Assembly (NCBI GenBank): GCA_026387235.1
Contig: JAPLMD010000066.1
Span: 1 to 49,988, forward strand
Length of the DNA stretch: 49,988 nucleotides
Source: Candidatus Omnitrophota bacterium
Lineage (GTDB): Bacteria; Omnitrophota; Gorgyraeia; Gorgyraeales; Gorgyraeaceae
Direction: 5' to 3'
The stretch's first letter is position 1. Every line of letters begins with the position of its first letter. This document shows, piece after piece, positions 6,428 to 46,662 of the stretch. Under the pieces are notes generated by a model, which was not told the DNA's origin, ran no database searches, and saw only the letters and a program-made list of their open reading frames with translations. Made by a program: the position numbers and the translations under genes.

Positions 6428-6568
6428 AATGAGGCCACAATTTACGGAACGTAGTGACGTAAATTGTATAGGCCGAATTAATCCCGAGGATGCGACTAAG
6501 AGGAGCATTCGAGGGATCTAATTGAGATTGGCTTCGCCCTGAGGGCTTGGCGCTTCCTCGCAATGACA
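6428..6568. repeat. Cluster of nested palindromic (REP-like) elements
   Basis: ACAATTTACG-GA-AC-GTA-GT-GA-CGTAAATTGT; ATCCC-GA-G..ATGC-GA-CT-AAG-AG-GA-GCAT..C-GA-GGGAT; minus-strand TGTCATTGCGAGG...CAATCTC. Confidence 0.75.
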
Positions 6569-6585
6569 CTTTTCCCTTGATTCTA

Positions 6586-6614
6586 TTGACAAATGATTCT
6601 TTTTTCTATATAAT
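6586..6614 (+). promoter_or_regulatory. Consensus sigma70 promoter of trpBA
   Basis: TTGACA (6586-6591), 17 bp, TATAAT (6609-6614). Confidence 0.85.
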
Positions 6615-6640
6615 TTATATTCTATATTGGAGATATGTAG

Positions 6641-7816
6641 ATGTTACCTGATAAATACGGTAAATTTGGCGTATTTGGCGGAAAGTTTGTGCCTGAAACG
6701 CTCATGATAGCTCTTGAAGAGCTTGAAAAAGAATATAAAAAAACGCAGAAAGACGCTAAATTCAAAAAAGAATTAGATAATTTACTGGAAGTCTACGCAG
6801 GCAGGCCTACGCCGCTCTACCTAGCGAAAAACTTATCTAAAAAAACCAAAAGAAAAATATATTTAAAAAGAGAAGATCTTCTTCATACCGGCGCCCATAA
6901 GATAAACAATACTTTAGGCCAGGTGCTTCTGGCCGTTAAGATGGGAAAAACCCGCATCATCGCGGAAACAGGCGCGGGACAGCATGGGCTAGCTACTGCG
7001 ACCAGCGCAGCGCTATTCGGGCTTCCGTGCGAAGTATATATGGGAGAAGAAGATATTCACAGGCAGGCTCTTAATGTATTTAAGATGAGGCTTCTCGGCG
7101 CGAAAGTAATACCTGTTTATTCGGGAAGCAAAACCCTGAAAGACGCTACAAGCGAAGCAATAAGAGATTGGGTTACGAACGTAAGGAACACGTATTACGT
7201 CATAGGTTCTGCCATAGGCCCGCACCCGTATCCGATGATGGTCAGGGATTTTCAGTCAGTGATAGGCAAGGAGACAAAAAAACAGATTCTTAAATATGAA
7301 AAAAGACTTCCTGACTATATGGTTGCGTGTGTCGGCGGCGGAAGCAACGCAATGGGGTTTTTCCACCCATTTTTTAAAACAGGTGTAAAGCTTATCGGAG
7401 TGGAGGCAGGCGGATTAGGGCTTAATACGGAAAAGCACGGGGCAAGTCTTTGCAAAGGGGCTGTGGGTATTTTACATGGAACCAAGAGCTATCTATTGCA
7501 GGATAAAGACGGCCAGGTGAGAATAGCTCATTCCATATCTGCGGGATTGGATTATCCGGGCACAGGACCTGAACATTCTTATTATAAAGAAACCGGCCGC
7601 GCTGAATATGCGGCAATAACGGATAAAGAAGCGCTTCAGGGATTTAAGATGCTTACAGAACAGGAGGGCATAATACCCGCTTTGGAATCAAGTCATGCGA
7701 TATATTATGCTGTTAAAAAATTAGCTCCAAAAGTAAGTAAAGATAAAATCATAGCAGTCTGCCTTTCAGGCAGAGGCGATAAAGACATTGATATAATTAA
7801 AAATGAATCGCATTGA
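6641..7816 (+). CDS. trpB: Tryptophan synthase beta subunit
   Basis: [45 protein letters not shown]. Confidence 0.98.
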
Positions 7817-8591
7817 TAAAAAATTTAAAGAATTGCGGGAAGATAATAAGAAAGCTTTTATTGCTTTTATAATGGCAGGGGATCCATCTTTAGCCATCAC
7901 AAAAAAATTGATACTTGAATTAGACAAGCAAGGCGCGGATGTTATTGAGCTTGGCGTGCCTTTTTCTGATCCTATTGCTGACGGCCCAACCATACAAAAG
8001 GCTTCAGAGAGAGGTTTAAAAAGCAGGACAACTCTTGCCGATGTATTTAAGATAGCGAGGAGTGTCAGATCCATAATACAGACTCCGATAGTCTTTTTGA
8101 TGTACTACAATCTGGTTTTTCACTATGGGCTCGAAAGATTCGTAAAAGATGCTATATTTTCAGGCGTTGACGGCGTTATCATACCGGATCTTCCCGTGGA
8201 AGAGTCAAAAGATTTGCGGATGATTGCGAAAAGGCATGCCTTTTCAGTGATACATCTTTTGGCTCCGACCAGTTCTATTGAAAGAATAAAAAAAGTCAGC
8301 AATGCTTCAACAGGTTTTATATATTATGTTTCCCTTACCGGAACAACCGGAACCAGGGTAAAATTGCCGAAAGAACTGAAGTTGAGCATAAAAAATATAA
8401 AAAAGATTACCAAAAAACCTGTTTGCGCTGGATTTGGTATATCTACTCCCGAACAGGTAAAAGAGGTTCAGAAGGCGGCTGACGGAGCAATTGTAGGGAG
8501 CGCGATTGTAAAAGTTATTGAAAAAAATATCAGGAAGAAAGATTTAGTAAAAAAAGTCGGAAGTTTTGTAAGAACTCTAAAGGGGGCTTAA
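7803..8591 (+). CDS. trpA: Tryptophan synthase alpha subunit
   Basis: [40 protein letters not shown]. Confidence 0.98.
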
Positions 8592-8594
8592 TTT

Positions 8595-9653: not shown

Positions 9654-9654
9654 C

Positions 9655-11385: not shown

Positions 11386-12138
11386 ATGAGTAAAATATTA
11401 ATAGCTCCGAGCTTGCTGTCAGCGGATTTTGCTAATCTTAAGGATGAAATAAAGAAGATTGAAGATTCAGGCGCAGACATGATACATATTGATATAATGG
11501 ACGGTCATTTTGTCCCTAATATTACAATAGGGCCTTTGATAGTCGAGGCGTCCAGGAGATGCACTGACATGATTTTGGACGTGCATCTCATGATTAAAGA
11601 ACCGCATAAATTTATCAAGGATTTTATAGAGGCAGGGAGCGATATCGTCACGATACACGCAGAAGCATACGGAAGGCCGCAAGGCTACAAAGGCACCCCG
11701 TACCATTCGCTTCGCTCAGGTACGGGGCAGGCAAAGACACAAGTCCTGAAAAAAGGGCAATCTAAAAGCGTAAAAGAGATTGATGAGAAAAGAATAACAG
11801 AGGTTTTGAAACAAATAAAAGCCTTTGGGAAAAAGGCAGGCATATCCTTGAATCCTGATTCGCCTTTATGCATAGAGGGCGTGTTAAAATATGCGGATAT
11901 GGTCTTACTTATGTCAGTTCATCCCGGATTTGGCGGGCAGAGTTTTATAGAAGCCGTATTGCCAAAAATAAAGGCATTAAGGGAGATGTATTCTAAAGAC
12001 ATAGAAGTAGATGGCGGCATAAATGATAAGATTGCTAAATTAGTTATCGGAGCTGGCGCGAATATACTGGTAGCGGGATCGTATTTCTTCGGCGCAAAAG
12101 ATAAAATAGATGCTGTAAAAAGATTACGCATACAATAG
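11386..12138 (+). CDS. rpe: Ribulose-phosphate 3-epimerase with a large internal insertion
   Basis: IAPSLLSADF, HIDIMDGHFVPNIT, DVHLM, MSVHPGFGGQ, EVDGGI; 42 aa between HAEA and ITEVLKQIK. Confidence 0.95.
   Translation: MSKILIAPSLLSADFANLKDEIKKIEDSGADMIHIDIMDGHFVPNITIGPLIVEASRRCTDMILDVHLMIKEPHKFIKDFIEAGSDIVTIHAEAYGRPQGYKGTPYHSLRSGTGQAKTQVLKKGQSKSVKEIDEKRITEVLKQIKAFGKKAGISLNPDSPLCIEGVLKYADMVLLMSVHPGFGGQSFIEAVLPKIKALREMYSKDIEVDGGINDKIAKLVIGAGANILVAGSYFFGAKDKIDAVKRLRIQ
11696..11727 (-). repeat. Palindromic element within the rpe coding sequence
   Basis: Minus strand reads CCCCGTACC-T-GA-GCGAAGC-GA-AT-GGTACGGGG (perfect 9-bp arms). Confidence 0.8.
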
Positions 12139-13582: not shown

Positions 13583-15376
13583 ATGGATAAAAGCAAGATT
13601 AGAAATTTTTGCATTATTGCTCATATAGACCATGGCAAGTCCACGCTTGCCGATAGGCTGCTTCAAATTACCGATACAGTGAATAAGAGGCAGTTCAGGG
13701 AGCAGCTGCTGGACGATATGGATCTAGAGAGGGAGCGCGGCATTACTATTAAAGCAAGCGCTGTCAGGATGTCTTATAAGGCAGCTGATGGAGATGTTTA
13801 CGAGCTGAACCTTATTGATACGCCTGGGCATGTCGACTTCAGCTATGAAGTCTCAAAATCTTTATCAGCCTGCGAAGGCGCAGTCCTTCTGGTAGACGCG
13901 GCCCAGGGCGTAGAAGCCCAGACAGTCGCAAATCTGCAGCATGCGCTTGATAAAAAACTTACTATAATCCCTGTTATAAATAAAATTGACCTGCAGAATG
14001 CGGATCCTGAAAGAGTAAAAAATGAGATAAAGGGTATTTTGAATGTTGAAGATAATGAAATAATGCTTACCAGCGCTAAAGAAGGCATAGGAACCAAGGA
14101 ACTTCTTGAAAGAATAATAAAGGATGTGCCTCCTCCAAGCGGGAGCATAGACGAAAAGCTCCAGGCATTGTTATTTGATTCAGCGTATGATACTTACAGG
14201 GGCGTAATAGTTTATGTAAGGGTTGTAAACGGCGTAATCAGAAAAGGTATGAATATACTCATGATGTCCGGCTCTAAAAAATACGAGGTTCAGGATGTAG
14301 GCATATTCAGGCCCCAGATGGAACCTGTGGACAGCCTTTCGTGCGGAGAAGTAGGTTACGTTATCTGCCAGATAAAAGAAGCCAAGGATGTAAAGAACGG
14401 AGATACTATTACTGACGCCAAGCGGCCGGCAGATAAGCCTTTGATCGGCTATAAACAGCTCAAACCCATGGTGTTCTGCGGCATCTATCCTGTCAATGCA
14501 AAGGATTTTGATTTTCTCAAAAATGCCATTGAAAAATTAGAATTAAGCGATTCATCTTTTATATATGAACCTGAAAATTCTCCGTCATTAGGTTTTGGAT
14601 ACAGGGCTGGTTTTCTAGGGCTTTTGCACATGGAGATAGCCCAGGAAAGATTGGAAAGAGAATATGACCTGAATCTTGTCATCACTACGCCCAGCGTTGT
14701 TTACAGGGTTAAGGACAAAAAAGGGAAAGTTACAGAGGTTGACAACCCCAGTAAATTGCCGGAGCCCCAAAACATAGAAGAAATTTCAGAGCCATTTGCA
14801 GCTACCTACATAATGGTGCCTCACGATACATTAAGCATGGTTATCGAGTTTGCAAAATCGAGGCGCGGAGAATACAAGTCAACAGAATACATTTCCCAGG
14901 AAAAGATAAAACTTATTTTTCAAATACCGCTGTCCGAACTTATAGTTGATTTTTATGATAAGATAAAATCTATGACCAGAGGGTATGGCTCTTTGGATTA
15001 TGAGGTGAGCGAATACAGGCCCGGAAATCTTGTAAAACTTGATATATTGATAAATGGCGATCCTTGCGACGCGCTTTCTTCGATTGTTCATAAAGAGAAA
15101 TCTCAATATAGAGGGAGGATGCTCGCGGCGAAGCTCAAAGAACTTATCCCGAGGCAGATGTTTGAAGTAGCGATACAGGCGGCAATAGGGAATAATGTGG
15201 TAGCGAGAGAAACAGTCCGAGCGATGAGTAAAAACGTAACTGCAAAATGTTACGGAGGAGACATTTCCAGGAAACGCAAACTCTGGGAAAAGCAAAAAGA
15301 AGGAAAAAAGCGAATGAAACAATTCGGCAAGGTGCAGATACCGCAGGAAGCGTTTCTTGCTGTTTTAAAAATCTAA
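13583..15376 (+). CDS. lepA: Elongation factor 4
   Basis: IRNFCIIAHIDHGKSTLADR, ERERGITIK, KCYGGDISRKRKL. Confidence 0.98.
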   Translation: MDKSKIRNFCIIAHIDHGKSTLADRLLQITDTVNKRQFREQLLDDMDLERERGITIKASAVRMSYKAADGDVYELNLIDTPGHVDFSYEVSKSLSACEGAVLLVDAAQGVEAQTVANLQHALDKKLTIIPVINKIDLQNADPERVKNEIKGILNVEDNEIMLTSAKEGIGTKELLERIIKDVPPPSGSIDEKLQALLFDSAYDTYRGVIVYVRVVNGVIRKGMNILMMSGSKKYEVQDVGIFRPQMEPVDSLSCGEVGYVICQIKEAKDVKNGDTITDAKRPADKPLIGYKQLKPMVFCGIYPVNAKDFDFLKNAIEKLELSDSSFIYEPENSPSLGFGYRAGFLGLLHMEIAQERLEREYDLNLVITTPSVVYRVKDKKGKVTEVDNPSKLPEPQNIEEISEPFAATYIMVPHDTLSMVIEFAKSRRGEYKSTEYISQEKIKLIFQIPLSELIVDFYDKIKSMTRGYGSLDYEVSEYRPGNLVKLDILINGDPCDALSSIVHKEKSQYRGRMLAAKLKELIPRQMFEVAIQAAIGNNVVARETVRAMSKNVTAKCYGGDISRKRKLWEKQKEGKKRMKQFGKVQIPQEAFLAVLKI

Positions 15377-15383
15377 CTAATAA

Positions 15384-15512
15384 TATTCTTCGAGCGAGGC
15401 CACGAAGTGGCCGAGTCGAGAAATTCTCGACTCGCTTCGTCCTTCGTCGCTATCGCTCCTCAGGATTAGGACGATCCTGAACGAAGTGAAGGATCTGGTT
15501 CGCTCGAATAAT
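15384..15512. repeat. Nested palindromic element between lepA and lepB
   Basis: Outer TTCGAGCGA (15389-97)/TCGCTCGAA (15500-08); inner GGCCAC-GAA-GTGGCC, GAGTCGAGAA-A-TTCTCGACTC, ATCCT-GA-AC-GAA-GT-GA-AGGAT. Confidence 0.8.
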
Positions 15513-15526
15513 AAAATGGGGGCTAA

Positions 15527-16069
15527 ATGAACAACAAGATGCGTTATTTGATGAAAGAATGGGTTGAGCCTATAATTATAGCAGTAATACTAGCATTGAT
15601 AATAAGAACCTTTGTAGTGCAGGCATTCAAGATACCTACGGGTTCTATGAGGACTACTTTAATAGAAAGCGACAGGATACTTGTAAACAAATTCATATAT
15701 AAATTTGTTCAGCCAGAAAGAGGAGATGTTATAGTTTTTATATCTCCTGAGGACAAGAAAAAGGATTTTATAAAAAGGCTTGTCGGCCTGCCGAATGAAA
15801 ATATTCAGATTTCAAACGGCGCTATCCTGGTAAACAATGCCCCAGTGGAAGAGAGCTCTATGTTAAAAAAGCAGCATTATTATAATAGGGGGGATTTTGG
15901 CGCAGAAGGGCAGATCGTTACAGTCCCCAATGATGCTTATTACGTGTTAGGAGATAATAGTATTTCCAGCCGCGACTCGAGATACTGGGGTTTTATGCCT
16001 AAAAAATATCTGTTGGGCAAGGCATTTTTAATATACTGGCCGCCTAATAGAATAGGTATGATCAAATAG
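15527..16069 (+). CDS. lepB: Signal peptidase I
   Basis: IPTGSM, DFIKRLVGLP, LGDNSISSRDSRYWG. Confidence 0.96.
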   Translation: MNNKMRYLMKEWVEPIIIAVILALIIRTFVVQAFKIPTGSMRTTLIESDRILVNKFIYKFVQPERGDVIVFISPEDKKKDFIKRLVGLPNENIQISNGAILVNNAPVEESSMLKKQHYYNRGDFGAEGQIVTVPNDAYYVLGDNSISSRDSRYWGFMPKKYLLGKAFLIYWPPNRIGMIK

Positions 16070-16080
16070 TTATATTGCGC

Positions 16081-16110
16081 TTGACTAGGGATGCTTAAAG
16101 GTGTTATAAT
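16081..16110 (+). promoter_or_regulatory. Sigma70 promoter with extended -10
   Basis: TTGACT (16081-86), 18 bp, TG-n-TATAAT (16105-10). Confidence 0.7.
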
Positions 16111-16121
16111 TACCAAAAATA

Positions 16122-16182
16122 GCCCCTCGTCCGCCAAAGTTCTGTGGCGGACTCGGGATCAAATTTTGTTTCACAAAATTTG
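16122..16182 (-). repeat. Family-A palindromic element
   Basis: GCCCCTCG-[TCCGCCA..TGGCGGA]-CTCGGGAT-CAAATTTTGT-TTC-ACAAAATTTG; same shell at 29192, 39018 and 45276. Confidence 0.85.
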
Positions 16183-16193
16183 GGAGGTGTAGA

Positions 16194-16499
16194 ATGAAAA
16201 AATATACGATAATAGTATTATTGCTTTTGTTGGTCATGGTTGCAGCAGGCTGCACAGGAACACAGAAAGGCGCTGGAATTGGCACATTGATAGGAGCTGG
16301 GGCAGGCGCTATCATAGGCCATCAGTCAGGTCATGCAGCTGAAGGCGCATTGATAGGCGGCGCTGCAGGAGCAGCAGGCGGAGCATTGGCTGGAGATGCT
16401 ATGGATAACAAGTTTTGCCCGGTTTGCGGAAAACAATACGGGTCAGATGTTCAGTATTGTCCGGCTGACGGAACAGAATTGAAAGTTATACAAAAATAA
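16194..16499 (+). CDS. Glycine-zipper lipoprotein with C-terminal zinc-ribbon-like motif
   Basis: Lipobox AAGC, GAGIG..GAGAGAIIG..GALIGGAAG, CPVCG..YCPADG. Confidence 0.85.
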   Translation: MKKYTIIVLLLLLVMVAAGCTGTQKGAGIGTLIGAGAGAIIGHQSGHAAEGALIGGAAGAAGGALAGDAMDNKFCPVCGKQYGSDVQYCPADGTELKVIQK

Positions 16500-16521
16500 A
16501 ATAACCAGAGCAGTTTGTGCA

Positions 16522-16562
16522 CCCCCGCCCTTTTTAAAATCTTAAAAAAGGGCGGGGTTTTT
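16522..16562 (+). terminator. Rho-independent terminator (near-identical to 6387-6427)
   Basis: CCCCGCCCTTTTT..AAAAAGGGCGGGG followed by TTTTT. Confidence 0.85.
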
Positions 16563-16567
16563 ATTTC

Positions 16568-16596
16568 TTGACCACGCATATCCTCCGTGTTAATAT
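16568..16596 (+). promoter_or_regulatory. Probable sigma70 promoter of the acs block
   Basis: TTGACC, 17 bp, TG-n-TAATAT; only 9 nt separate it from the ATG and there is no SD. Confidence 0.5.
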
Positions 16597-16605
16597 TTAT
16601 CTACT

Positions 16606-18543
16606 ATGGATGAATTTAAAATCACATTTTTTCCGGAACATAAGTCTGTTTCAGTAGATAGAGGAACAGATCTTTTGACAGCTGCGCTGAAGACAGGCGT
16701 GCATATATATAATAGCTGCGGAGGAGAGGGTGTGTGCGGCAGGTGCAAGGTAATAGTAAAAAAAGGCGATTATATAACAGAAGGCAGCGGAAGGGTTTCC
16801 GATGCGGAACGGAATGAAGGATATGTGCTTGCCTGCAGGACTTCTCCTGGATCAGACATGGAAGTTTTTGTGCCGGAGGAATCCAGGCTGGGAGACCTTG
16901 AGATACTTACGGAAGAGATAAAGGCGAAGCGCCTGGCAGGACTTTATACGCCTGTCGAAGAAATAGAAGAAGAGCATTACAAAGTCACTTCAAAGATTTT
17001 CAAGCATGGTCCGTTATCCACAAAAATATTTTTAAAGCTGCCGAATCCTACGATTGACGATAATTCCGGAGACGCTGACAGGCTTCTCAGAGAGATAAAA
17101 AAACATCATAAAGAAATTAATACAATACAGATGGGGCTTAGCAATATAAAAAGGCTGCCCAGGCTTTTAAGGGAGAGCAATTGGGAAGTTACCGTAACTC
17201 TCGGGAATAGGAATAGAACTACTGAGGTGGTGTTGATAGAGCCAGGTGACAGGTCTAAAGAAAATTTTGGAGTAGCTGTGGACGTAGGCACAACTACTAT
17301 AGTCGCTTATTTAGTAGACCTGAATTCGCAGAAAGTGCTTGGTTCAAAAGCAAGTTATAACCCGCAGGTGGATTTCGGAGAAGATGTAATTTCCAGGATT
17401 ATCTTTGCTCAGCATGAAAAAGGCCTCGAAAAACTGCATCACGCAGTCATAGATACAATAAACACCCTTATAGATAATCTTATAAAAGAAGCAAGTCTTA
17501 CGCTGGATGATGTAACAGCTGTTGTTTCTGCAGGGAATACCACAATGACTCACCTGCTTTTAAAAATAGACCCTGCGAATATAAGAAAAGACCCGTACAT
17601 CCCTGCTGTAAATTTCATGCCGGTAATAAGAGCCAGCGAAGCAGGCATAAAAATAAATCCCAGAGGCCTATTAATGTGCCTTCCATGCATAGGAAGCTAT
17701 GTAGGCGGGGATATAATAGCAGGCGTTCTTGCGTCAGGCATGGATAAAACCAGAGATCTCTCGCTTTTTATAGATTTAGGCACAAACGGCGAAGTTGCGC
17801 TAGGAAACAAAGAATGGCTGATGTCTTGTTCTACATCAGCAGGCCCATGTTTTGAAGGCGGAGGCCTCAAGTGCGGGGTACGAGCTATGAAGGGCGCTAT
17901 CCAGAATATTTCTATAAAAAATAATTCTCTTGAAATACAGACCATTGGGAATCTGCCTCCAAAAGGCATATGCGGTTCCGGTATAGTAGATATTGTCAGC
18001 GAATTATTGAAAAATAAAATAATAGACCGGTCCGGAAAAATAAAAGATAATAAAATTTGCCAGGTCAGGGATTGCGACGGTATAAAAGAGCTTGTATTGG
18101 TAGTCGCGGAAGATTCTGCCACGGGCAAGGATATTACCATAGATGAAAATGATATAAAAAATTTAATCCACTCGAAAGGCGCTATCTATACGGGCATAGA
18201 GGTATTGCTGAAAGAATCGGGTTTTGAAAAATCAGACATAAAGCATGTTTTTATCGCAGGCGGGTTGGGTACTGCTTTAAACATTCGCTCGGCAATTAAT
18301 ATAGGGCTTTTGCCCGACCTCCCTGAGAAAAGTTTTGCTTTTCTTGGAAATACTTCAGTAGCAGGCGCAAAGATGTGCCTTTTGTCATATGAGGCAACTG
18401 ATAAAGCAGACGTTATTGCGAATAAAATGACGTATTTGGACTTAAGCACCAATGCCTTATTTATGAATAATTACAGCGCGGCATTATTCCTGCCGCATAC
18501 GGATATAGAGCTGTTCCCAAGCGTGAAGAAATTATTAAGTTAA
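16606..18543 (+). CDS. ASKHA-domain reductive activator of corrinoid protein (RACo/AcsV) with N-terminal [2Fe-2S]
   Basis: SCGGEGVCGRC..LAC, AVDVGTTT, FGEDVISRI, IDLGTNGE, STSAGPCFEG, GICGSG; adjacent to cooC and acsDE. Confidence 0.92.
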   Translation: MDEFKITFFPEHKSVSVDRGTDLLTAALKTGVHIYNSCGGEGVCGRCKVIVKKGDYITEGSGRVSDAERNEGYVLACRTSPGSDMEVFVPEESRLGDLEILTEEIKAKRLAGLYTPVEEIEEEHYKVTSKIFKHGPLSTKIFLKLPNPTIDDNSGDADRLLREIKKHHKEINTIQMGLSNIKRLPRLLRESNWEVTVTLGNRNRTTEVVLIEPGDRSKENFGVAVDVGTTTIVAYLVDLNSQKVLGSKASYNPQVDFGEDVISRIIFAQHEKGLEKLHHAVIDTINTLIDNLIKEASLTLDDVTAVVSAGNTTMTHLLLKIDPANIRKDPYIPAVNFMPVIRASEAGIKINPRGLLMCLPCIGSYVGGDIIAGVLASGMDKTRDLSLFIDLGTNGEVALGNKEWLMSCSTSAGPCFEGGGLKCGVRAMKGAIQNISIKNNSLEIQTIGNLPPKGICGSGIVDIVSELLKNKIIDRSGKIKDNKICQVRDCDGIKELVLVVAEDSATGKDITIDENDIKNLIHSKGAIYTGIEVLLKESGFEKSDIKHVFIAGGLGTALNIRSAINIGLLPDLPEKSFAFLGNTSVAGAKMCLLSYEATDKADVIANKMTYLDLSTNALFMNNYSAALFLPHTDIELFPSVKKLLS

Positions 18544-18544
18544 T

Positions 18545-18874
18545 TTTTCGGCTCCGGCAGGCCTAAAGAAAAGCCTCGTCGATTCGAGCGGGCATGGTGT
18601 CCTGCAGGCAGGTTGGGACTGTTCGGCACTGAAAGAGTTTCGCCGTGCGCTACGGTTTACGGCTCATTTTTTATACCGAAGGTAGTCTTGACGGTATAAA
18701 AACTTCGCCGTAATTCCTTGCGCACTTAGCATTAAGAATATTATTAATGCCGAAACTTTTCTGAGGTGCCTCAAGCCCCAGCCTGCCTGCAGGACGAGCG
18801 AGAATCGGCGCGGAGCGAAGGACGCCTCGCTGGGGCGTCCGAGCGTCTTTTCGTAGGTCTGTTAGAGCCGAAAA
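18545..18874 (+). repeat. ~330-nt long nested inverted-repeat element (structured RNA or non-autonomous element)
   Basis: TTTTCGGCTC/GAGCCGAAAA ends, 19-bp stem 18599-617/18777-795, inner TTTTTATACCG/CGGTATAAAAA; homolog at 49885-49982. Confidence 0.8.
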
Positions 18875-18894
18875 GAATTGAAAAGGATTTCGAG

Positions 18895-19647
18895 ATGGCG
18901 TATGTTATTGCAGTAGCGGGAAAAGGCGGGGTTGGGAAGACTACGATCTGCGCAATGCTGGTTCAACATCTATTAAAGATAGACAAACCAATCCTTGCTG
19001 TTGACGCTGATCCGAATTCTAATTTAAACGTAGCGCTGGGGTTAGAATATGAGGAAACTATTGCGGACATCAGAGAAGAAGTCAAGAAACAAACTCCGGA
19101 AAGTTTTTCTAAAAGTGAATTTTTTGGCCTTAGACTGGAAGAGGCTGTAGCAGAAGGAAATGGGTTTGACCTTCTGGTTATGGGGAGGCCCGAAGGCCCA
19201 GGCTGTTATTGCGCAGTGAATAATATATTAAGAGAATACCTTGCAAGGATATCCAAGAAGTATAAATTTGTAGTTATTGACAACGAAGCCGGCATGGAGC
19301 ATCTTTCCAGGCGCACGGCAACAGATATAGATTTGCTTCTGCTTATCAGCGATCCTACAATGGTAGGCATTAGCTCTGCTGTAAATGCTTTTAATACCGC
19401 GAAGAGCGCCGGTCTAAAGATAAAAGACATAGTCTTGGTTATAAATAAATCAAAAGGCGGGCTGGAATCGGATAAATTGAAATTGATAGAAAATGCAGGT
19501 TTAAAGATAGGCGGGTATATCTGTTTTCAGGAAGAAATACAAAAGAATAGCGAAAAAGGGAAAGGCGTAGTTGAAGCAGACAGCAATTTGGAGAATATTA
19601 TCGATAGTTTATTTAAACAGGAGGAAAAAATAAATATAATTCCTTAG
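18895..19647 (+). CDS. cooC: CooC/AcsF nickel-insertion ATPase
   Basis: VAGKGGVGKTT, DADPNSN, MGRPEGPGCYC, DNEAGMEHLSR; start reassigned to ATG 18895. Confidence 0.92.
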   Translation: MAYVIAVAGKGGVGKTTICAMLVQHLLKIDKPILAVDADPNSNLNVALGLEYEETIADIREEVKKQTPESFSKSEFFGLRLEEAVAEGNGFDLLVMGRPEGPGCYCAVNNILREYLARISKKYKFVVIDNEAGMEHLSRRTATDIDLLLLISDPTMVGISSAVNAFNTAKSAGLKIKDIVLVINKSKGGLESDKLKLIENAGLKIGGYICFQEEIQKNSEKGKGVVEADSNLENIIDSLFKQEEKINIIP

Positions 19648-19698
19648 CCAATTTTGTCCGCCAAAGTTTTGTGGCGGACAAAATTCAGCGGTGGCTAT
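19638..19698 (+). repeat. Family-C palindromic element (copy 1)
   Basis: AATTCCTTAGCCAATTTTGTC-[CGCCA..TGGCG]-GACAAAATTCAGCGGTGGCTAT; inverted homolog at 46596-46662. Confidence 0.8.
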
Positions 19699-19712
19699 AC
19701 ATTGGAGATACA

Positions 19713-20627
19713 ATGGAAAGATTAATTGAAAAATGGCAGGATAAGATCAGCGAGGTTACGCTTGGCGCAAAAAAAATAATAAAGATAGGAGGAGAGACGG
19801 GTATCTATTTTATAGAGGGAGAAGACAAGTGCCCGAATCCTCCTCGCGTAGCAATGGAGGTATGGGACATGGAACCTGAGTCATGGCCGGAGGTGCTTAA
19901 ATCAAGTTTTGGAAAAGCGCTTAAAGATCCAGGCGATTGGGCAAAGATGTGCGTTGATAAATTTTTAGCTGACCTTATCTGTTTAAGGCTCGCAAGCACG
20001 CACCCTGACTCGAAAAATACTTCCGGAGAAGAAGCAGGAAAGGTTCTGGAAAAGGTTATGAAGGCTATTTCTGTCCCTCTGATAGTCATAGGAAGTTCTG
20101 CCCCTGAAAAGGATAATGAGGTTATGGCGTATTGCGCGAACATCGCGAAAGGACAAAACTGCCTGTTTGGCATCGCAACTCAGGCGAACTATAAAACGCT
20201 GACTGCTGCGTGCCTCAGCGCGGGACACGCTATAATTTCAGAAGCTCCTATAGATATAAATATTGCGAAGCAGTTGAATATACTTATCTGCGACATGCAG
20301 TTTCCGGCAGATAAAATAGTGATACATCACGCTACGGGCGCGCTGGGCTACGGCCTCGAGTACACTTATTCTATAATGGAAAGAACCAGGCTTGCCGGTC
20401 TTTCCGGAGACAAGATGTTGTCTATGCCGATGATAAGCTTTGCAGGCCAGGAGTCGTGGCGCACTAAAGAAGCGAAGACAGGGTGCATGGATACCGGTAT
20501 TTTATGGGAAATCGCTACAGGATCGGCATATCTGAATTCAGGCGTTGATATACTTGTAATGAATCATCCAAAAGCAGTTGAAGAAATAAAGAAGGCAATA
20601 AACAACTTTACAAGCAGAGGGGCTTAA
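19713..20627 (+). CDS. acsD: Corrinoid Fe-S protein small subunit (AcsD/CdhD)
   Basis: IGGE, AMEVWD, PIDINIAKQLN, ALGYGLEYTYSIMERTRLAGL..DKML; SD GGAG before ATG 19713. Confidence 0.92.
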   Translation: MERLIEKWQDKISEVTLGAKKIIKIGGETGIYFIEGEDKCPNPPRVAMEVWDMEPESWPEVLKSSFGKALKDPGDWAKMCVDKFLADLICLRLASTHPDSKNTSGEEAGKVLEKVMKAISVPLIVIGSSAPEKDNEVMAYCANIAKGQNCLFGIATQANYKTLTAACLSAGHAIISEAPIDINIAKQLNILICDMQFPADKIVIHHATGALGYGLEYTYSIMERTRLAGLSGDKMLSMPMISFAGQESWRTKEAKTGCMDTGILWEIATGSAYLNSGVDILVMNHPKAVEEIKKAINNFTSRGA

Positions 20628-21421
20628 TGTTTATTATAGGCGAGCGTATCAACGGGATGTTTAAAGATGTGGCAAAGGCTATAAAAGAAAAAGATAAATC
20701 CATAATCCATGACCTTGCGCTTAAACAGATTTCCTGCGGCGCAAATGCCCTTGACGTAAATGTCGGCCCTGCTTCCGCTAACCCGAAAGAGGCTATGGAA
20801 TGGCTTGTTAAAACCATTAAAGAGGTTACTGATATATCGCTCGCCATAGACACTACAAAGCAGGACGTGATGGAGCTGGGCCTCGGCCTGTGCGAATCAA
20901 AACCAATAATAAATTCCGTGAACGCAAATGAAGAAAAAATGAAAACCCTTTTCGGGCTTGCCAAAAAATATAACGCGGCCATTATCGGCCTTGCCATGGA
21001 CAAGGCAGGCATTCCAAAGGACAGCGAAGGCAGGATGGAACTTGCGATGAAAATGGTAGCATCTTGCATGGAATACGGAATTGACATATCCGAGCTTTAT
21101 TTAGATGCTGTTATATTGCCTGTAAACGTTGCGCAGCCGCACGCGAAAGAAGTTCTCAAGACTATAAGGGATTCGAAATTATTGGCTGACCCGAGTCCTA
21201 AAACAGTGCTTGGCCTGTCAAATGTGTCCCAAGGCTCTTCGGCCAAACATAAAAGCCTGATCAACAGGACTTTTCTCGCGATGGCTATTGCTAACGGGCT
21301 GGATGCCGCAATACTGGACGTCACTGACAGAGAATTGATGGACACATTGATAACAGCTGAGCTTTTAATGGAAAAACAGCTGTATTGTGACTCATATCTG
21401 GATGCTTACAGGAGAAAATAA
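20627..21421 (+). CDS. acsE: Methyltetrahydrofolate:corrinoid Fe-S protein methyltransferase
   Basis: IIGERINGMF, LDVNVGP, IINS, GLSNVSQG, GLDAAI, YCDSYL. Confidence 0.93.
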   Translation: MFIIGERINGMFKDVAKAIKEKDKSIIHDLALKQISCGANALDVNVGPASANPKEAMEWLVKTIKEVTDISLAIDTTKQDVMELGLGLCESKPIINSVNANEEKMKTLFGLAKKYNAAIIGLAMDKAGIPKDSEGRMELAMKMVASCMEYGIDISELYLDAVILPVNVAQPHAKEVLKTIRDSKLLADPSPKTVLGLSNVSQGSSAKHKSLINRTFLAMAIANGLDAAILDVTDRELMDTLITAELLMEKQLYCDSYLDAYRRK

Positions 21422-23128: not shown

Positions 23129-23135
23129 CAATACA

Positions 23136-24245: not shown

Positions 24246-24247
24246 CT

Positions 24248-29181: not shown

Positions 29182-29191
29182 GCAAAATTTG

Positions 29192-29272
29192 GCCCTTCGC
29201 CGGCTAAAATGCTCGCTACTCGCTCGCATTTTTTTGACGCTGGCTCAGGATCAAATTTGTTTCACAAATTTG
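29192..29272 (-). repeat. Family-A palindromic element
   Basis: GCCCTTCG-[CCGGCTAAAATGCTCGC..GCTCGCATTTT..GCTGG]-CTCAGGAT-CAAATTTGT-TTC-ACAAATTTG. Confidence 0.85.
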
Positions 29273-29279
29273 GGAGGAT

Positions 29280-29735: not shown

Positions 29736-29790
29736 AAGCCAGGGAAATTGACACTGAGCGCCGCCATTGTTTCTATGGCGGGCGAATGTA
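29718..29790 (+). repeat. Degenerate family-A-like element overlapping the aroQ stop
   Basis: TCAATTTCTCTG/CAGGGAAATTGA hairpin, then CACT-GA-GC-[GCCGCCAT..ATGGCGG]-GC-GA-ATGT. Confidence 0.65.
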
Positions 29791-29798
29791 TAACCCCT

Positions 29799-37637: not shown

Positions 37638-38540
37638 ATGAGAGAGATACTTGTTATAGGTTCAGTAGCGCTTGATACAATCGCGTCCCCTTCAGGATAT
37701 TCAAAGGAAATACTGGGCGGGTCTGCGACTTATTTTTCAATAAGCGCTAGTTTTTTTGCGCCTGTAAACTTAGTTGCGACCATAGGCATGGATTTTCCTG
37801 AAAAATACAAGAAAACCATGAAATCTTTTGGCTTAGATTTAGAAGGGCTTGAAGTAAAAGAAGGTAAAACTTTCCGATGGGAAGGGTCTTACGTAAAAGA
37901 CTTGAATTGCGCGGAGACCATTGAAACGCAGCTAAATGTATTTGCAGAGTTTAAGCCCTGTCTTCCAAAAAGATATGAAAAAAGTAAATATATTTTTCTC
38001 GCGAATATAGACCCAGACCTTCAGATATTCATACTTAAAAAATTTGCCGGTAAAAGATTTATAGGCTGCGATTCCATGAACCACTGGATTAAAAATAAAA
38101 ACAGGTCTCTTAAAAACATGATAAAGAAAACTTCTATAATATTTCTTAATGATACAGAAGCAAAGATGCTTTCCGGAGAATCTAATATGCTGAAAGCCGG
38201 CAAATACCTTCTTTCGATGGGGCCTGAATTTGCAGTTGTTAAAAGAGGCGAATACGGAGCGATACTATTCTCTAAAAATTTTACATTCATGGTACCTGCG
38301 TATCTTCTAGAAGATGTTAAAGACCCTACGGGCGCAGGGGATACGTTCGCAGGCGGATTTATGGGATATCTGGCAAAGATGGATAAGATAAGCGAAAAGA
38401 ATATAAAAAATGCCCTTCTGTGGGGCAGCGTGATGGCTTCTTTTACGGTCCAGGACTTCAGCATAAACAGATTTCTGAAATTGAATAAAAGAGACGTAGA
38501 GAAAAGGCATAAAAAATTCAAACAGCTGATAAGTATTTAA
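37638..38540 (+). CDS. PfkB family carbohydrate kinase
   Basis: GSVALD, GGSATY, KRGEYG, DPTGAGDTFAGG. Confidence 0.93.
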   Translation: MREILVIGSVALDTIASPSGYSKEILGGSATYFSISASFFAPVNLVATIGMDFPEKYKKTMKSFGLDLEGLEVKEGKTFRWEGSYVKDLNCAETIETQLNVFAEFKPCLPKRYEKSKYIFLANIDPDLQIFILKKFAGKRFIGCDSMNHWIKNKNRSLKNMIKKTSIIFLNDTEAKMLSGESNMLKAGKYLLSMGPEFAVVKRGEYGAILFSKNFTFMVPAYLLEDVKDPTGAGDTFAGGFMGYLAKMDKISEKNIKNALLWGSVMASFTVQDFSINRFLKLNKRDVEKRHKKFKQLISI

Positions 38541-38552
38541 ATTTTGAGTGTT

Positions 38553-38728
38553 TTGTTTGTGTGGAATTTTAAAATTCCACACAAACAATTGGGGGAGTTT
38601 GGAGGGGGTGCAGGCACCCCCTCGAGGGGTAACAGCGAAGCAATGCGACAATAGGAGCATTGAGTAGCGCCATAGGGGCAAAGCCCCTTTGGACAAGTTA
38701 TAAGGAGCGAAGCGACGAAATAACTTGT
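38553..38728. repeat. Array of five hairpins directly upstream of tRNA-Gly
   Basis: Perfect 36-bp palindrome 38553-88; GAGGGGGTGC/GCACCCCCTC; CAATGC-GA..GA-GCATTG; AGGGGC-AAA-GCCCCT; ACAAGTTA..GA-GCGAAGC-GA..TAACTTGT. Confidence 0.8.
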
Positions 38729-38802
38729 GCGGGTGTAGTTCAATGGTAGAACACGAGCTTCCCAAGCTCGCAGCGTGGGTTCGATTCCCATCACCCGCTC
38801 CA
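38729..38802 (+). tRNA. tRNA-Gly (anticodon CCC), CCA encoded
   Basis: GCGGGTG/CACCCGC acceptor stem, anticodon arm CGAGC-TTCCCAA-GCTCG, GGTTCGATTCC T-arm, TCCA end. Confidence 0.97.
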
Positions 38803-38813
38803 GAGTATTAAAA

Positions 38814-39175
38814 GGGAATCGAAGGGAGTCCGCTAGATGCGACAGATAGGAGCATCTGTTTAGCGGACGAGTGGCCGACCCGCCGTAGGCGGGCGCCGAT
38901 TCCCATCACCCGCTCCGAATTTTGCGAAGCAAAGTTCGTCCTGAGAATACGACCGAATAGAGAGTATTCGAAGGGCACAAAAGTAGATATTTGATAGAAT
39001 AGCTGATTGATGAGGAGATACTTCGGTAGCTAAAATGCTCGCTTTGCTCGCATTTTTGACGCTACCTCAGTACCAAATTTCCTTTGGAAATTTGGTTCCC
39101 ATCACCCGCTCCGAATTTTGCGAAGTAAAATTCGTCCCGAGCAACCATGGTCTTTTGTGCATAGTTGCGAGGGAC
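38814..39175. repeat. Two extra tRNA-Gly 3'-end copies interleaved with palindromic elements
   Basis: TTCCCATCACCCGCTCC at 38900-916 and 39096-112; 42-bp direct repeat 38900-941/39096-137 (2 mismatches); family-A elements at 38917-976, 39018-094 and 39113-175. Confidence 0.85.
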
Positions 39176-39197
39176 ATAATTAATATATAAAGATTAT

Positions 39198-40820
39198 ATG
39201 CCAAACGATAGAGAAGAAATTTTAAATACGCTTATACGCAGGGTAAATTCCTTTGCTGATGGATACAGGCAGAACATAGCCATATTCGGAGAGCCATGCA
39301 TAGGCAAGACTACTTTGATAAAGAATCTTTTTTCGTCAGAATTATTGAAAAAAGACAGCGTTGTTCCCGCGTATCTGGAAATAAAAATAGAACCTTTTGA
39401 ATTCTGCGCCAAGAGGTTCATAAAATCCATATTGTCCCAAGTTGTAAAATCAGACCCTCTGCTTACATCCCCTCAAGACGCGGTTCTTCTAATAGAAGAC
39501 CTGGCGAGAGATTATCCTAAGACTGCCCAGATCTGCATAAGGGTCCTACAGGACATAGAAAAGTCTAAATTAGACGAGGCGTTTTCATTCATGCTGGATA
39601 TTCCTTCCGTGCTGTCCGAGGAAACAAAAAAACGCTGCATCCTCATACTTGACGAATTTCACAACTTGGATAATTTCATGCTCAAAAATCCGTTCGGCAC
39701 GATTGCAAAAAAGATAATGATACAGAAAGATACGATGTATATACTGGTAAGCTCCAGAATAAACCAGTCTCTGCGCGTGGTGAATGAAAAATTAGCGCTC
39801 CTATTTGGTAACTTTGAGAAATTTTTCTTAAAGCCGCTTGATATAGCCGCCAGCAGAGCTTTTCTGCAAAACAACATAAAAGGCTCTGTGCTGTCTCAGG
39901 TTTATCTGGATTTCGTAGCTTCATTTGCGGGCAATAGGCCTTTTTACATGCAGGCAATATGCGATGAGATAGAGAGAGCTGTGTTTTCCAAAAGAATAGC
40001 GCCGGAGAATTATCAGGATCTAATAGAACGCTCGTTCATGGAGGCGCTTTTCAAAAGAAACGGTATTTTGAACCAATATTTTTACAATCTTCTTTTTAAG
40101 ATATCAGAAGGCAAACTATTGTCAAAGTCTATATCGGTCCTGATCTCGCTTTCTTCCGAGAACAAGAAACAGGGCGATATCGCAAAGGATGCTAAATTAC
40201 AATCTGGGGATGTGTCAAAAATATTGAACAGCATGATTGAGCTGGATATTATCGCGCGAAACGGCGCTTTTTACAGATTTACTGACAGGCTATTCAGGTT
40301 CTGGCTTAAATCCGTATATATGAAAAGAATTTCTTCTTTCAGCTTGGACGAGAACATAGAAGAAGCGGCTTTTAGAAAGGACGTATCCAACAGGTTTAAC
40401 GTATTTGCTCAGGAGTTTGAGAAAGAACTTTCCCACAGGATTATAGAGCTTTTCAAGTTGTTCAAAAATGATATAATACAGTTGAACGGCAAAAAACATA
40501 AGTTCATATCTTTTACAAATGTAGAGGAATTCGAGGATTACAGCAGGAGTCATGCCGCTATCCTGGCGACAAATGGCAGGCAGAAATGGCTATGCACTAT
40601 TAAAAAAGAGAATATAACAGAAAATGACATGCTGGACATAATAAAAAATAGCCGGGATCAGAAGAAGAATGCCGGGATTAACAAGAATATCGTAATAGCC
40701 TTTTCAGGTGTCAACGAAAATGCATATCTTATGGCAAAGGAAGCGAAATTCTGGACATGGAGCGCGGAAGACCTAAACGTGCTGATGGAATTGTACGGCA
40801 AACCGCATGTATCGTATTGA
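39198..40820 (+). CDS. Archaeal-ATPase-like P-loop protein with wHTH and degenerate nuclease-like C-terminus
   Basis: GEPCIGKT, ILILDEFHNL, GNRPFY, FTDRLFRFWL. Confidence 0.75.
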   Translation: MPNDREEILNTLIRRVNSFADGYRQNIAIFGEPCIGKTTLIKNLFSSELLKKDSVVPAYLEIKIEPFEFCAKRFIKSILSQVVKSDPLLTSPQDAVLLIEDLARDYPKTAQICIRVLQDIEKSKLDEAFSFMLDIPSVLSEETKKRCILILDEFHNLDNFMLKNPFGTIAKKIMIQKDTMYILVSSRINQSLRVVNEKLALLFGNFEKFFLKPLDIAASRAFLQNNIKGSVLSQVYLDFVASFAGNRPFYMQAICDEIERAVFSKRIAPENYQDLIERSFMEALFKRNGILNQYFYNLLFKISEGKLLSKSISVLISLSSENKKQGDIAKDAKLQSGDVSKILNSMIELDIIARNGAFYRFTDRLFRFWLKSVYMKRISSFSLDENIEEAAFRKDVSNRFNVFAQEFEKELSHRIIELFKLFKNDIIQLNGKKHKFISFTNVEEFEDYSRSHAAILATNGRQKWLCTIKKENITENDMLDIIKNSRDQKKNAGINKNIVIAFSGVNENAYLMAKEAKFWTWSAEDLNVLMELYGKPHVSY

Positions 40821-45028: not shown

Positions 45029-45275
45029 GAAGCACAGAACTGTTTTGAAGAGGTTTGAGAGACTAACTGCCTTAAAAGAAAAAGGCATCTTAAACGATAC
45101 GGATTCTGTTTTTGGCATGCCCAAGCTAAAGATAATAAAGATCAAGGTCAAAAAAGAAAAGGCCGAAGAGAAGCCAAAAGAAGGCGAAGGGTTAGTAGCT
45201 GCTCCGGCCGCTCCGGAAGCCGCAAAGAAAGAAACAGCTCCCAAGAAAGCTGGAAAAGAAGAAAAAAAGAAATAA
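44988..45275 (+). CDS. PVC-superphylum small basic protein (TIGR04137-like)
   Basis: MSIHPSLK..HRTVLKRFERL..SVFGMPKLK with Lys/Ala/Glu tail; SD AAGGAG. Confidence 0.88.
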   Translation: MSIHPSLKTSKAGKKHRTVLKRFERLTALKEKGILNDTDSVFGMPKLKIIKIKVKKEKAEEKPKEGEGLVAAPAAPEAAKKETAPKKAGKEEKKK

Positions 45276-45335
45276 GCCCTTGCCTGCCACAGAAACAATG
45301 GCTGCTCGGGATTAAATTTTGTTTCACAAAATTTG
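45276..45335 (-). repeat. Family-A palindromic element (degenerate)
   Basis: GCCCTTG-[CCTGCCA..TGGCTG]-CTCGGGAT-TAAATTTTGT-TTC-ACAAAATTTG. Confidence 0.8.
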
Positions 45336-45344
45336 GGAGATTCT

Positions 45345-45980
45345 ATGAGATATATTAAGAGTTGCGCAGTTATTTTTATTCTTTCGCTGTTCTCTTTAAC
45401 AGTTTATTCGGAAGAGGAGGCTAAGGAAAAATTTCCAAAGGTAGGCTATGTAAAAAATGAAGAAGCAATAGTCAGAGCGGGAGATAATGTAAATTTTGAA
45501 AACCTATGCTCGTTATCAAAATCTGACTCTGTGAAGATCATAGATAGGCGCTATAGCTGGTTTAAGATTTTATTGCCCAAAAAGGCGTTTTTGTATGTTA
45601 ATAAAGATTACGTCGATCTGACATCTGACGAAAAAGGCGTGGGCATAATAAATGCCTCCAACGTAAACTTAAGGGCAGGCGCAGGCACAAGATATTCCAT
45701 AATCGGACAGATATCAAAACCTGAAAAAGTTTCTATAATATCGGAAGATAGCGGATGGTATAAAATAGAACCGCCTTACGGCGCAACAGGCTGGATATAT
45801 TCTAACCAAATAATGCTGGCAGAAGAAAACGAGATAAAGATTCCAGAGCAAAAATCTGAGCAAAAAAAAGTAGAGGCAAAACCGAAAGAGACAACAGGTT
45901 CTACCGTAAGGCTTAACGCAAATTATCCCGCGCCTAAAGGCAATCTGTCCATAATTACTCCGGCAAAAAATAGCAGATGA
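45345..45980 (+). CDS. Secreted protein with two bacterial SH3 domains
   Basis: Signal peptide; VRAG..WFKI and VNLRAGAGTRYSIIGQ..GWYKI..GWI. Confidence 0.88.
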   Translation: MRYIKSCAVIFILSLFSLTVYSEEEAKEKFPKVGYVKNEEAIVRAGDNVNFENLCSLSKSDSVKIIDRRYSWFKILLPKKAFLYVNKDYVDLTSDEKGVGIINASNVNLRAGAGTRYSIIGQISKPEKVSIISEDSGWYKIEPPYGATGWIYSNQIMLAEENEIKIPEQKSEQKKVEAKPKETTGSTVRLNANYPAPKGNLSIITPAKNSR

Positions 45981-46588
45981 GTTTATTATTAAGTCTTTGC
46001 ATATTTTTCTTTGCGGTCATCATACATGAATACGCTCATGGATGGGTCGCGTGGAAGCTAGGGGATTCAACTGCGAGATTTATGGGAAGGCTTACGCTCA
46101 ACCCTCTTGCCCACATCGATCCCATAGGTACAATCTTTCTGCCGTTTATTCTTATCGCAACTCATTCTCCAGTACTTTTCGGATGGGCAAAACCCGTACC
46201 TGTAGATTTTTTAAATTTAAACAATCCAAAAAGGGATATGGTATGGGTAGGTCTTGCGGGCCCTGCGGCAAATATACTATTTGCGATAGCACTGGCCATG
46301 TTATTAAAGATCCCTTTATTAACAGCCAGTTACTTTGCCGTATCCGTGATAACGACCGCTATTATGGCAAATCTGGTTCTGGCCGTGTTTAATTTATTGC
46401 CTATTCCTCCTCTGGATGGGTCAAGAGTCATGATGGGCCTTTTGCCTTATAATATAGGTGCTGAATACGCAAAGATAGAGCCGTATGGTTTTATAATAAT
46501 ATTCGCGCTGCTTTGGATAGGTTTTGTAAATACTATAATTTGGCCTATAGTTATTTTTCTGGCACATGTATTGGGCGTACATGTATAG
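45977..46588 (+). CDS. Site-2 protease (M50) family protein
   Basis: HEYAH, AGPAAN, FNLLPIPPLDG. Confidence 0.94.
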   Translation: MSLLLSLCIFFFAVIIHEYAHGWVAWKLGDSTARFMGRLTLNPLAHIDPIGTIFLPFILIATHSPVLFGWAKPVPVDFLNLNNPKRDMVWVGLAGPAANILFAIALAMLLKIPLLTASYFAVSVITTAIMANLVLAVFNLLPIPPLDGSRVMMGLLPYNIGAEYAKIEPYGFIIIFALLWIGFVNTIIWPIVIFLAHVLGVHV

Positions 46589-46595
46589 TATCACC

Positions 46596-46662
46596 ATAGT
46601 TACCTCTGAATTTCGTCCCCGTCGCTTTGCGAAGCAACGGTGACGAAATTGGCTAAGGAATT
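46596..46662 (-). repeat. Family-C palindromic element (copy 2)
   Basis: Minus strand AATTCCTTAGCCAATTTCGTC-[ACCGTTGCTTCGCAAAGCGACGGG]-GACGAAATTCAGAGGTAACTAT. Confidence 0.8.

Follow-up and report, generated by a model that had tools for sequence, protein, structure and literature searches.

The closest described counterparts of the repeats considered here seem to be REP sequences, together with their RAYT enzymes, and miniature elements of the IS200 type. According to the portion of PMC8266576 available, the E. coli RAYT acts on the folded single strand of a REP and not on its complement, depends on GTAG and on two mismatches in the stem, and cleaves next to the hairpin at CT or CA. The same excerpt places guide tetranucleotides 5' of the subterminal hairpins at the ends of IS200/IS605. 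The BOX and RUP elements of pneumococci carry terminal inverted repeats and target duplications, as stated in the extract of PMC3049150 that was consulted. Here we describe a family of two-hairpin elements in a draft genome of a Candidatus Omnitrophota bacterium (GCA_026387235.1, hereafter G000), starting from contig JAPLMD010000066.1 (C6), whose entire 49,988 nt form the window of this study. Omnitrophota are uncultured bacteria with small genomes. The element was observed inserted directly 3' of CC and in one orientation, both beside ribosome-binding sites and where tRNA genes end. On balance, we regard it as a non-autonomous mobile family of 59–81 nt that may move as folded single-stranded DNA (ssDNA) with the help of an enzyme provided in trans, most likely a Y1 HUH protein.

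On the strand that carries the GA motifs (the GA strand), the main element reads as an A/T-rich hairpin, 0–3 nt, and a second hairpin that we call the shell hairpin. The first hairpin has a GAA loop and the consensus CAAATTTTG-YGAAR-CAAAATTTG, and the element begins at its first paired base. The foot of the second hairpin is the shell TCCYGAG...CGARGGR with a tandem G.A/A.G mismatch, and the last base of the element is C. Each shell holds a subfamily-specific inner hairpin, of which there are a handful of recurrent types, and in some copies a second shell is nested inside in the opposite orientation. A search of both strands for TCCYGAG-N(5-70)-CGARGGR, with nested double hits counted, gave 114 matches in the genome (1,496,334 bases in 69 contigs, 95% complete), six of them in the window. 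Since all copy numbers given here were obtained from regular expressions and one 15-mer, they are lower bounds. Among 43 matches to the left end in G000, only four were not strictly closed within 100 nt, namely an ordinary copy whose closure is degenerate and three unrelated sequences, so there is no long version in this genome and the main element is therefore non-autonomous.

The main element is mobile, as four orthologous sites are filled in some genomes of the same genus and empty in others. For this comparison, every spacer of the window and of contig C17 was set against the syntenic contigs of same-genus genomes. The spacer 16069-16194 reads ..ATAG|GAGG.. in G006 and G007, and the element sits exactly at the bar in G000, G004, G008, and G009. 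The spacer 29172-29280 is empty in G010 and contains an 81-nt insert in G000. On contig C17, G000 and G009 have copies with different inner hairpins in the spacer at 11865, which is empty in G001, G003, and G006, while the spacer at 3134 is empty in G001, G006, G008, and G009 and filled in G000. Apart from 8 nt at 29172, no target duplication beyond one or two ambiguous bases was found at the junctions compared. The 8-nt direct repeat at the 29192-29272 copy was considered as a target duplication and rejected, as the other junctions show none; it fits an older hairpin-arm remnant at that site.

Near-identical strains also differ by elements, because contigs from public metagenomes skip or replace individual copies. 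This comparison covered 14500-30500, and the data of the four runs were contigs rather than raw reads. A contig of 2161 nt from run X2, which has 14 differences per ~2040 aligned positions (~99.3% identical), has only two letters between 16119 and 16183 and thus no copy at 16122-16182. The 150-nt spacer 15377-15526 is exchanged in its entirety for 56 other letters in this contig and in run X3, and in a contig of run X5 positions 15436-15498 are exchanged for 28 letters that hold a different small shell. Copy number differs greatly between related genomes. The 15-mer AAATTTGATCCYGAG, which spans the junction of hairpin and shell and was searched with one mismatch allowed, occurs 50 times in G000 (reversed control, 0) and is present in 30 of 41 related genomes, including other genera and families of the class. 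All 12 same-genus genomes contain it in 1–51 copies, where counts of 1–2 are indistinguishable from the controls (0–1). Viral contigs gave at least 113 single matches to the 15-mer; among 80 of these loci, a closure motif within 90 nt was present in one and formed no hairpin, for which reason the viral matches are read as chance.

Insertion takes place directly 3' of CC without target duplication, and the usual site is CCTCC, the antisense of a Shine-Dalgarno sequence. The four nucleotides 5' of the first hairpin were CTCC in 25, CCTC in nine, GCTC in three, and TCTC in two of 59 elements, and the base after the element was C in 51 of the 59. When half-shell sites with CTCC 18–40 nt upstream were inspected, 45 of 77 had a start codon 3–12 nt beyond on the other strand, counting only starts with an open frame of at least 50 codons. 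The order on the gene-sense strand is thus hairpin, ..TTTGG|GAGG, 5–9 nt, and ATG. The terminal GG of the element rebuilds the split ribosome-binding site, and the downstream gene therefore keeps its signal. The occupied share of Shine-Dalgarno sites, 20/1215, rests on crude gene starts and is too unreliable to be used.

The second class of sites is formed by tRNA genes. In 13 of 42 tRNA genes, the first hairpin follows the tRNA directly, in sense orientation, past CC or CCA; eight of these copies have a strict shell, three a variant shell, and two consist of the hairpin alone. At tRNA-Gly of G006, the insertion point lies within the terminal CC|A. Sites of both classes have ..(C/A/T)CC^ in common when read along the GA strand. 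This strand is antisense to the mRNA at genes and sense at tRNAs, and because the RNA strand differs between the two site classes, the shared asymmetry cannot come from one transcript, which suggests that it is read at the level of DNA. A further arrangement was seen at C62:48711-48787 in G000, where a tRNA-Arg(CCT) gene is followed directly by an inverted shell-only element that CCA bounds on either strand.

The structural signal was counted in 157 kb of intergenic and short-ORF (open reading frame) sequence, with 20 mononucleotide shuffles as the control. Tandem GA/GA mismatches with at least 3 bp on each side numbered 100, compared to a shuffle mean of 12.0 and 12 for the AG/AG control, and G-N-A triloops on stems of at least 4 bp numbered 188, compared to 78.8 after shuffling and 114 for A-N-G. 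The excess over shuffled sequence that the initial annotation had predicted for both motifs was thus borne out. It had also described the elements as oriented, which is true within single elements: a perfect-stem hairpin lies directly 5' of the shell in 59 of the 114 matches, and its loop core is GNA in 37, TNC in one, and something else in 21. Across whole regions the rule is weaker (neighboring oriented features lie on the same strand in 44 cases and on opposite strands in 25), because copies lie in both orientations and nest in each other; both orientations are present in 42 of 78 regions with two or more features. The occurrence of the shell in both orientations, which it had likewise noted, holds for the window as well as for the genome. 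Ten of the eleven places named as elements were confirmed, and the eleventh, at 29718, is a plain 10-bp hairpin at a stop codon, without GA/GA or GNA. The 7-mer TCCCGAG occurs 175 times, compared to a median of 83 in 60 permutations; as the permutations reach a maximum of 335, this count is uninformative by itself.

Other repeats share the niches of the main element. The second shell family, TTCCTTARCC-AATTTTG-[hairpin]-CAAAATT-CAGRGGTGRC, has the members 19640-19695 and 46602-46660 in the window and also abuts ribosome-binding sites; at one orthologous site of C17 it is present in five genomes with five different inner hairpins, and five others are without it. At six tRNA genes of G000, the tRNA is followed after 10–40 nt by an element of 95–170 nt that we term X. 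Behind X comes an exact 20-nt copy of the tRNA's own 3' end, starting from the T-loop, in five of the six; the copy at the Lys locus has one mismatch by inspection. In the window, the last 20 nt of tRNA-Gly are repeated at 38897, and 17 of them again at 39096. X opens with 8–9 nt that are exactly complementary to the beginning of the duplicate (8 nt at 38814). By eye, the X cores are near-identical in four of the six (Leu, Trp, Tyr, and Gly-GCC), and Gly-CCC and Lys share the core partly. With two mismatches allowed, the core was found in 26 of 38 genomes of the family. In 30 family loci (L102-L131), 23 of 33 core matches have a same-orientation tRNA within 260 nt upstream, and 20 of those 23 have the cognate 16–20-nt duplicate; two of the loci overlap, so that two core matches were counted twice. 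Across the family, X is associated with eleven tRNA species and occurs in tandem arrays. The cognate tRNA end at X may represent an integrase-type duplication, a long staggered cut, or the footprint of fold-back repair, all of which are possible. Like X, the second shell family and the composite at 15389-15508 are families distinct from the main element, with which they share intergenic niches. In addition, the related genomes G003, G005, G006, G008, and G011 have their own hairpin or A-rich repeat families in the same spacers, and identical intergenic sites of the window and C17 have been struck repeatedly by different elements.

For movement of the main element, we propose the following scheme. 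The element would move as folded ssDNA, and a trans-supplied enzyme would recognize hairpins and mismatch on just one of the strands and cut at the hairpin feet. The most likely enzyme would be a Y1 HUH protein of the RAYT/IS200 kind. G000 has three Y1_Tnp matches, for which the best NCBIfam model is the REP-associated tyrosine transposase. The 242-aa gene (C62:44830-45600, L032) carries on both flanks a palindrome of ~44 nt that is found at ~25 sites, and the 197-aa gene (C56:13870-14640, L031) is flanked by another short repeat with eight copies. Both RAYT-like genes therefore show classic REPtron layouts with palindromes other than the main element, and they have a conserved upstream region in common. 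The third protein, of 474 aa (C45:4376-5800; L033 538-1962), has an N-terminal Y1-like domain without the HUH histidines (by inspection), no flanking palindromes, and a long C-terminal extension; open frames of 427–444 aa match the same model in six other family genomes. It is similar to long subclasses with C-terminal extensions that the accessible part of PMC6006769 mentions. TnpB, IS110, reverse transcriptase, Cas1, DDE_Tnp_1, and rve gave no match in the 95% complete draft. Y2 gave none in G000 either, and the Y2 control also matched nowhere, so that this blank means little. The only tyrosine recombinases (Phage_integrase matches) are the XerC and XerD equivalogs. This leaves a trans-acting Y1 HUH enzyme as the best candidate by elimination, because the Y1 genes are the only transposase-like ones among the families searched. 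Judged from sequence, the odds that such an enzyme moves the element as ssDNA are roughly even, and the mechanism is plausible but unproven.

Several points weigh against this scheme. Folding energies with DNA parameters give almost no strand asymmetry: the nearest-neighbor mean is -16.2 kcal/mol for the GA strand and -15.8 kcal/mol for its complement, with the GA strand stabler in 26 of 41 cases; with RNA parameters this number is 35. That GNA loops and sheared G.A pairs are unusually stable is textbook knowledge, and it stays so here because standard energy models hardly separate the strands. In each of the 32 Shine-Dalgarno-type copies under a strict definition, the GA strand lies on the C-rich strand; for the shell hits as a whole, the split is 44:68. 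If this skew (median absolute value 0.16, and confounded with gene direction) reflects replication, the GA strand would be the leading-strand template and not the lagging-strand template, which is the one used by IS608-type elements in the account given in part of PMC6006769. The three Y1 proteins score 64.6, 61.6, and 52.3 bits, below the curated NCBIfam cut-off of 80, and no solved structure matched them by sequence at an E-value of 0.01. No shell element lies within 1.5 kb of a Y1 gene at any of the three loci in G000 or of the 32 loci in 30 family genomes. The two richest genomes, G000 (50 copies) and G012 (51 copies), share no close Y1 orthologue; the sole Y1 match of G012 and the 197-aa protein of G000 have 35% identity. 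As the genome is a 95% complete draft, the missing gene families are not proof of absence. There is no GTAG at the hairpin foot in 30 elements, and 39 of 59 flanks read CTCC, CCTC, GCTC, or TCTC. Moreover, the hairpins of the main element are terminal and dissimilar, whereas those of IS200/IS605 are similar and subterminal.

These results support in part what the initial annotation had inferred about the system. It was right that no candidate enzyme is encoded in the window, where no HUH gene was found, and its description of a non-autonomous, structure-defined, REP-like family agrees, as far as can be told from sequence, with the enriched signal, the further copies, and the empty sites. Its proposal of an enzyme encoded elsewhere finds three RAYT-like Y1 genes in the genome, though none is linked to the main element. 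HUH or RAYT genes flanked by the same elements, which it had suggested looking for, did not occur (0 of 32 Y1 loci in 30 genomes), and the single pooled system it envisaged dissolves into at least four distinct families.

An alternative, which we hold to be possible but doubtful, is that neither the two-hairpin element nor X is a client of RAYT or IS200 enzymes, and that an undescribed mechanism reads the ends of translation-machinery signals in DNA. On this view, the landing sites of the two-hairpin element, behind CC in the anti-Shine-Dalgarno CCTCC and behind CC(A) of tRNA genes, would be such ends, and X would bring with it a copy of the tRNA from T-loop position 56 onward. Under this alternative, the inverted 8–9-nt copy at the start of X looks like a guide or the footprint of palindromic repair.

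It is rather unlikely that the elements are moved by other machinery without any role for Y1, namely by XerC/XerD acting on folded hairpins, by a housekeeping ssDNA enzyme, or by an enzyme not yet described. Integron attC sites and the CTX phage are the models for such action on folded hairpins. An attC site has a conserved imperfect outer stem and a variable center, and one folded strand of it is functional; the architecture of the main element, which would likewise be read on one strand, appears similar. Both recombinases are present and would be common to all genomes, no Y1 gene is associated with the main family, and insertion at the CC(A) end and T-loop of tRNA genes is classic territory of tyrosine recombinases. 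However, there is no integron integrase, only the XerC and XerD equivalogs, and no dif-like site turned up, although no search aimed at dif was made. About 100 dispersed sites with a target of 4–5 nt and no longer block of identity are also unlike the output of Xer or integrase enzymes.

The elements might also be functional cis-acting hairpins under selection, with mobility secondary, either as stabilizers or modulators of translation within 5' untranslated regions beside the ribosome-binding site, or as processing or termination signals behind tRNAs. The ~45 copies 3–12 nt from start codons with a rebuilt Shine-Dalgarno sequence would suit such a role, as would the 13 of 42 tRNAs with an element directly at the 3' end and the two orthologous sites that hold an element with different inner hairpins in different genomes. 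Against this, the orthologous genes of close relatives and of the ~99.3%-identical strain do without the elements, the RNA strand differs by site class (TC at genes, GA at tRNAs), a single genus spans 1 to 51 copies per genome, and no Rfam family matches; we consider a mainly cis-acting nature improbable. Although some places are ordinary (the plain hairpin at 29718 and the terminator-like stems at 6387-6422 and 16523-16557), the notion that the palindromes are unrelated terminators and chance hairpins without common origin was rejected and deserves almost no credence, given the 114 shell copies, the 8-fold GA/GA excess over both shuffles and AG/AG, the conserved flanks, the empty sites, and the insertion polymorphism between strains.

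The features of the window are collected in Table 1.

Table 1. Elements and associated features in the window, and positions of the X loci in G000
Feature	Position	Strand	Remarks
Shell matches, plus strand	6482-6516, 38939-38975, 39135-39174	+	regular expression
Shell matches, minus strand	29193-29250, 16123-16158, 15440-15465	-	regular expression
Composite element	6433-6523	+	outer AATTA/TAATT stem closes the whole; coordinates hand-counted
Parts of the composite	6433-6474; 6482-6516	+	GGCC-closed hairpin with C-GTA-G loop; shell around ..CGAC..GGAG.. hairpin
Small module	6530-6561	-	GNA-type loops on the minus strand; by inspection
In-frame insertion in the ribulose-phosphate 3-epimerase gene	11683-11727	-	45 nt (15 codons); hairpin 11696-11727
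Nested composite	15389-15508	.	9-10 bp outer stem; minus shell 15440-15465, plus mini-shell 15473-15495
Shine-Dalgarno-type two-hairpin element	16122-16182	-	61 nt; abuts GAGG, 7 nt before ATG 16194
Second shell family, TTCCTTAGCC-AATTTTG-[hairpin]-CAAAATT-CAGCGGTGGC	19640-19695	+	in 5' untranslated region
Shine-Dalgarno-type two-hairpin element	29192-29272	-	81 nt; ends before GGAGG, ATG 29280
Block of hairpin modules upstream of tRNA	38553-38728	+	in G000 and G006; not in G001
tRNA-Gly(CCC)	38729-38802	+	target of tRNA-linked elements; Rfam
X element and 20-nt duplicate of tRNA 3' end	38814-38916	+	X 38814-38896; duplicate 38897-38916
Two-hairpin element, sense	38917-38976	+	right after ..GCTCC of the duplicated tRNA end
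Two-hairpin element, inverted	39019-39095	-	variant shell TACTGAGG..CCGAAGTA
Second partial copy of tRNA 3' end and two-hairpin element, sense	39096-39175	+	17-nt copy 39096-39112; element 39113-39175
Shine-Dalgarno-type element	45276-45335	-	degenerate far half-shell; ends before GGAG, ATG 45345
Second shell family, inverted	46602-46660	-	GCGAAGC loop on the plus strand; not in G004 there
X loci in G000	window 38814-38916; C2:5924; C17:312; C45:34038 and 34528; C66:6204

At the epimerase gene, 14–15 residues are missing in the orthologues of G006, G008, and G009, and G004 has a different insert at the same place. At the site of the nested composite, G004 has the outer part without the inner shells. 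The long reading frames of the window lie nearly all on the plus strand, GC content is ~0.41, and the GC skew is strongly positive; a protein of 866 residues encoded there is 70–86% identical to proteins of seven Candidatus Omnitrophota metagenome-assembled genomes. At gathering thresholds, the tRNA-Gly(CCC) was the sole Rfam match in the window, and permissive Rfam scans of 38500-39250 and of four tRNA/X loci yielded only tRNAs and weak matches below the gathering thresholds. Two mechanically called ORF starts, GTG 19671 and TTG 45333, lie inside elements; translation probably begins further downstream, for example at the in-frame ATG 45345. At 6387-6422 and 16523-16557, G+C stems are followed by T runs in the manner of terminators.

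Two further stretches of the window were noted. A structured repeat of ~220 nt at 18544-18766 matches ~30 BLAST pieces (~80–96%) on ~25 contigs of G000, many of them at contig ends; across four sets of metagenome contigs its depth reaches up to ~15x that of the flanks (one run shows less), copies related to it lie elsewhere in G006 and G001, and it has no Rfam match. The ~40 nt at 29753-29793, at the start of a 377-aa ORF, match many unrelated loci at 86–95% in all members of the genus, and probably encode a conserved N-terminal motif instead of forming a repeat element.

In comparison with the REP/REPIN-RAYT system, the main element is similarly a short, high-copy, intergenic, and imperfect palindrome that is non-autonomous and oriented and whose stem mismatch is likely recognized, and RAYT-like genes are present in the same genome, two of them in the REPtron layout with other palindromes. 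The differences are that no RAYT gene is flanked by the main family and that the unit consists of two unlike hairpins with defined ends. A specific CCTCC or tRNA ..CC target was also not found described for REPs in the consulted part of PMC8266576; junctions here lie after C on both sides. With IS200/IS605 and the PATEs, the miniature derivatives of these transposons, the element shares oriented insertion 3' of a target of 4–5 nt without duplication, hairpins at the ends, and precise empty sites. Unlike IS200/IS605, no TnpB and no autonomous partner or Y1 locus with the same ends was found. The left hairpin also leaves no space on its 5' side for the guide tetranucleotide that the IS608 model in the excerpt of PMC8266576 requires.

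Other known repeats also share some features with the main family. The pneumococcal BOX, RUP, and SPRITE repeats are likewise modular, shorter than 200 bp, strongly structured, close to genes, and co-transcribed (PMC3049150, in part); the main family differs from BOX, RUP, and classical MITEs by inserting without duplication, by its asymmetric ends, and by the lack of a DDE_Tnp_1 or rve match in the genome. Integron attC sites are also defined by structure, but there is no integron integrase, there are no cassette arrays, and the copies are dispersed. In-frame insertion is a hallmark of Rickettsia palindromic elements; the insertion in the epimerase gene is similar but a single case, and the copies are otherwise nearly all intergenic. 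The most informative features, which the initial annotation had passed over, are the site- and orientation-specific insertion 3' of CCTCC/..CC without duplication and the in-frame insertion in a gene. From its sequence, we would file the main family beside REP and the IS200-type miniature elements as a member of neither. The targeting of Shine-Dalgarno antisense and tRNA ends and the X element are new. A full-text literature search, supplements being outside its scope, found no descriptions of Omnitrophota repeats, and literature listings contained no published element that targets the antisense of Shine-Dalgarno sequences.

For experimental work, the hairpin, the tandem G.A mismatch, and the CTCC target together represent a defined substrate for testing orphan RAYT-like HUH proteins. 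The role of these proteins is still an open question in the passages of PMC6006769 that were consulted. Should the insertion chemistry of the tRNA-linked X element prove new, its interest would be wider. For the genomes that carry them, the repeats break assemblies, displace start codons in gene prediction, and can lengthen enzymes by additional residues, as in the epimerase. An element that homes to the antisense of ribosome-binding sites and to tRNA ends while rebuilding the site it enters would be a compact "safe-harbour" strategy.

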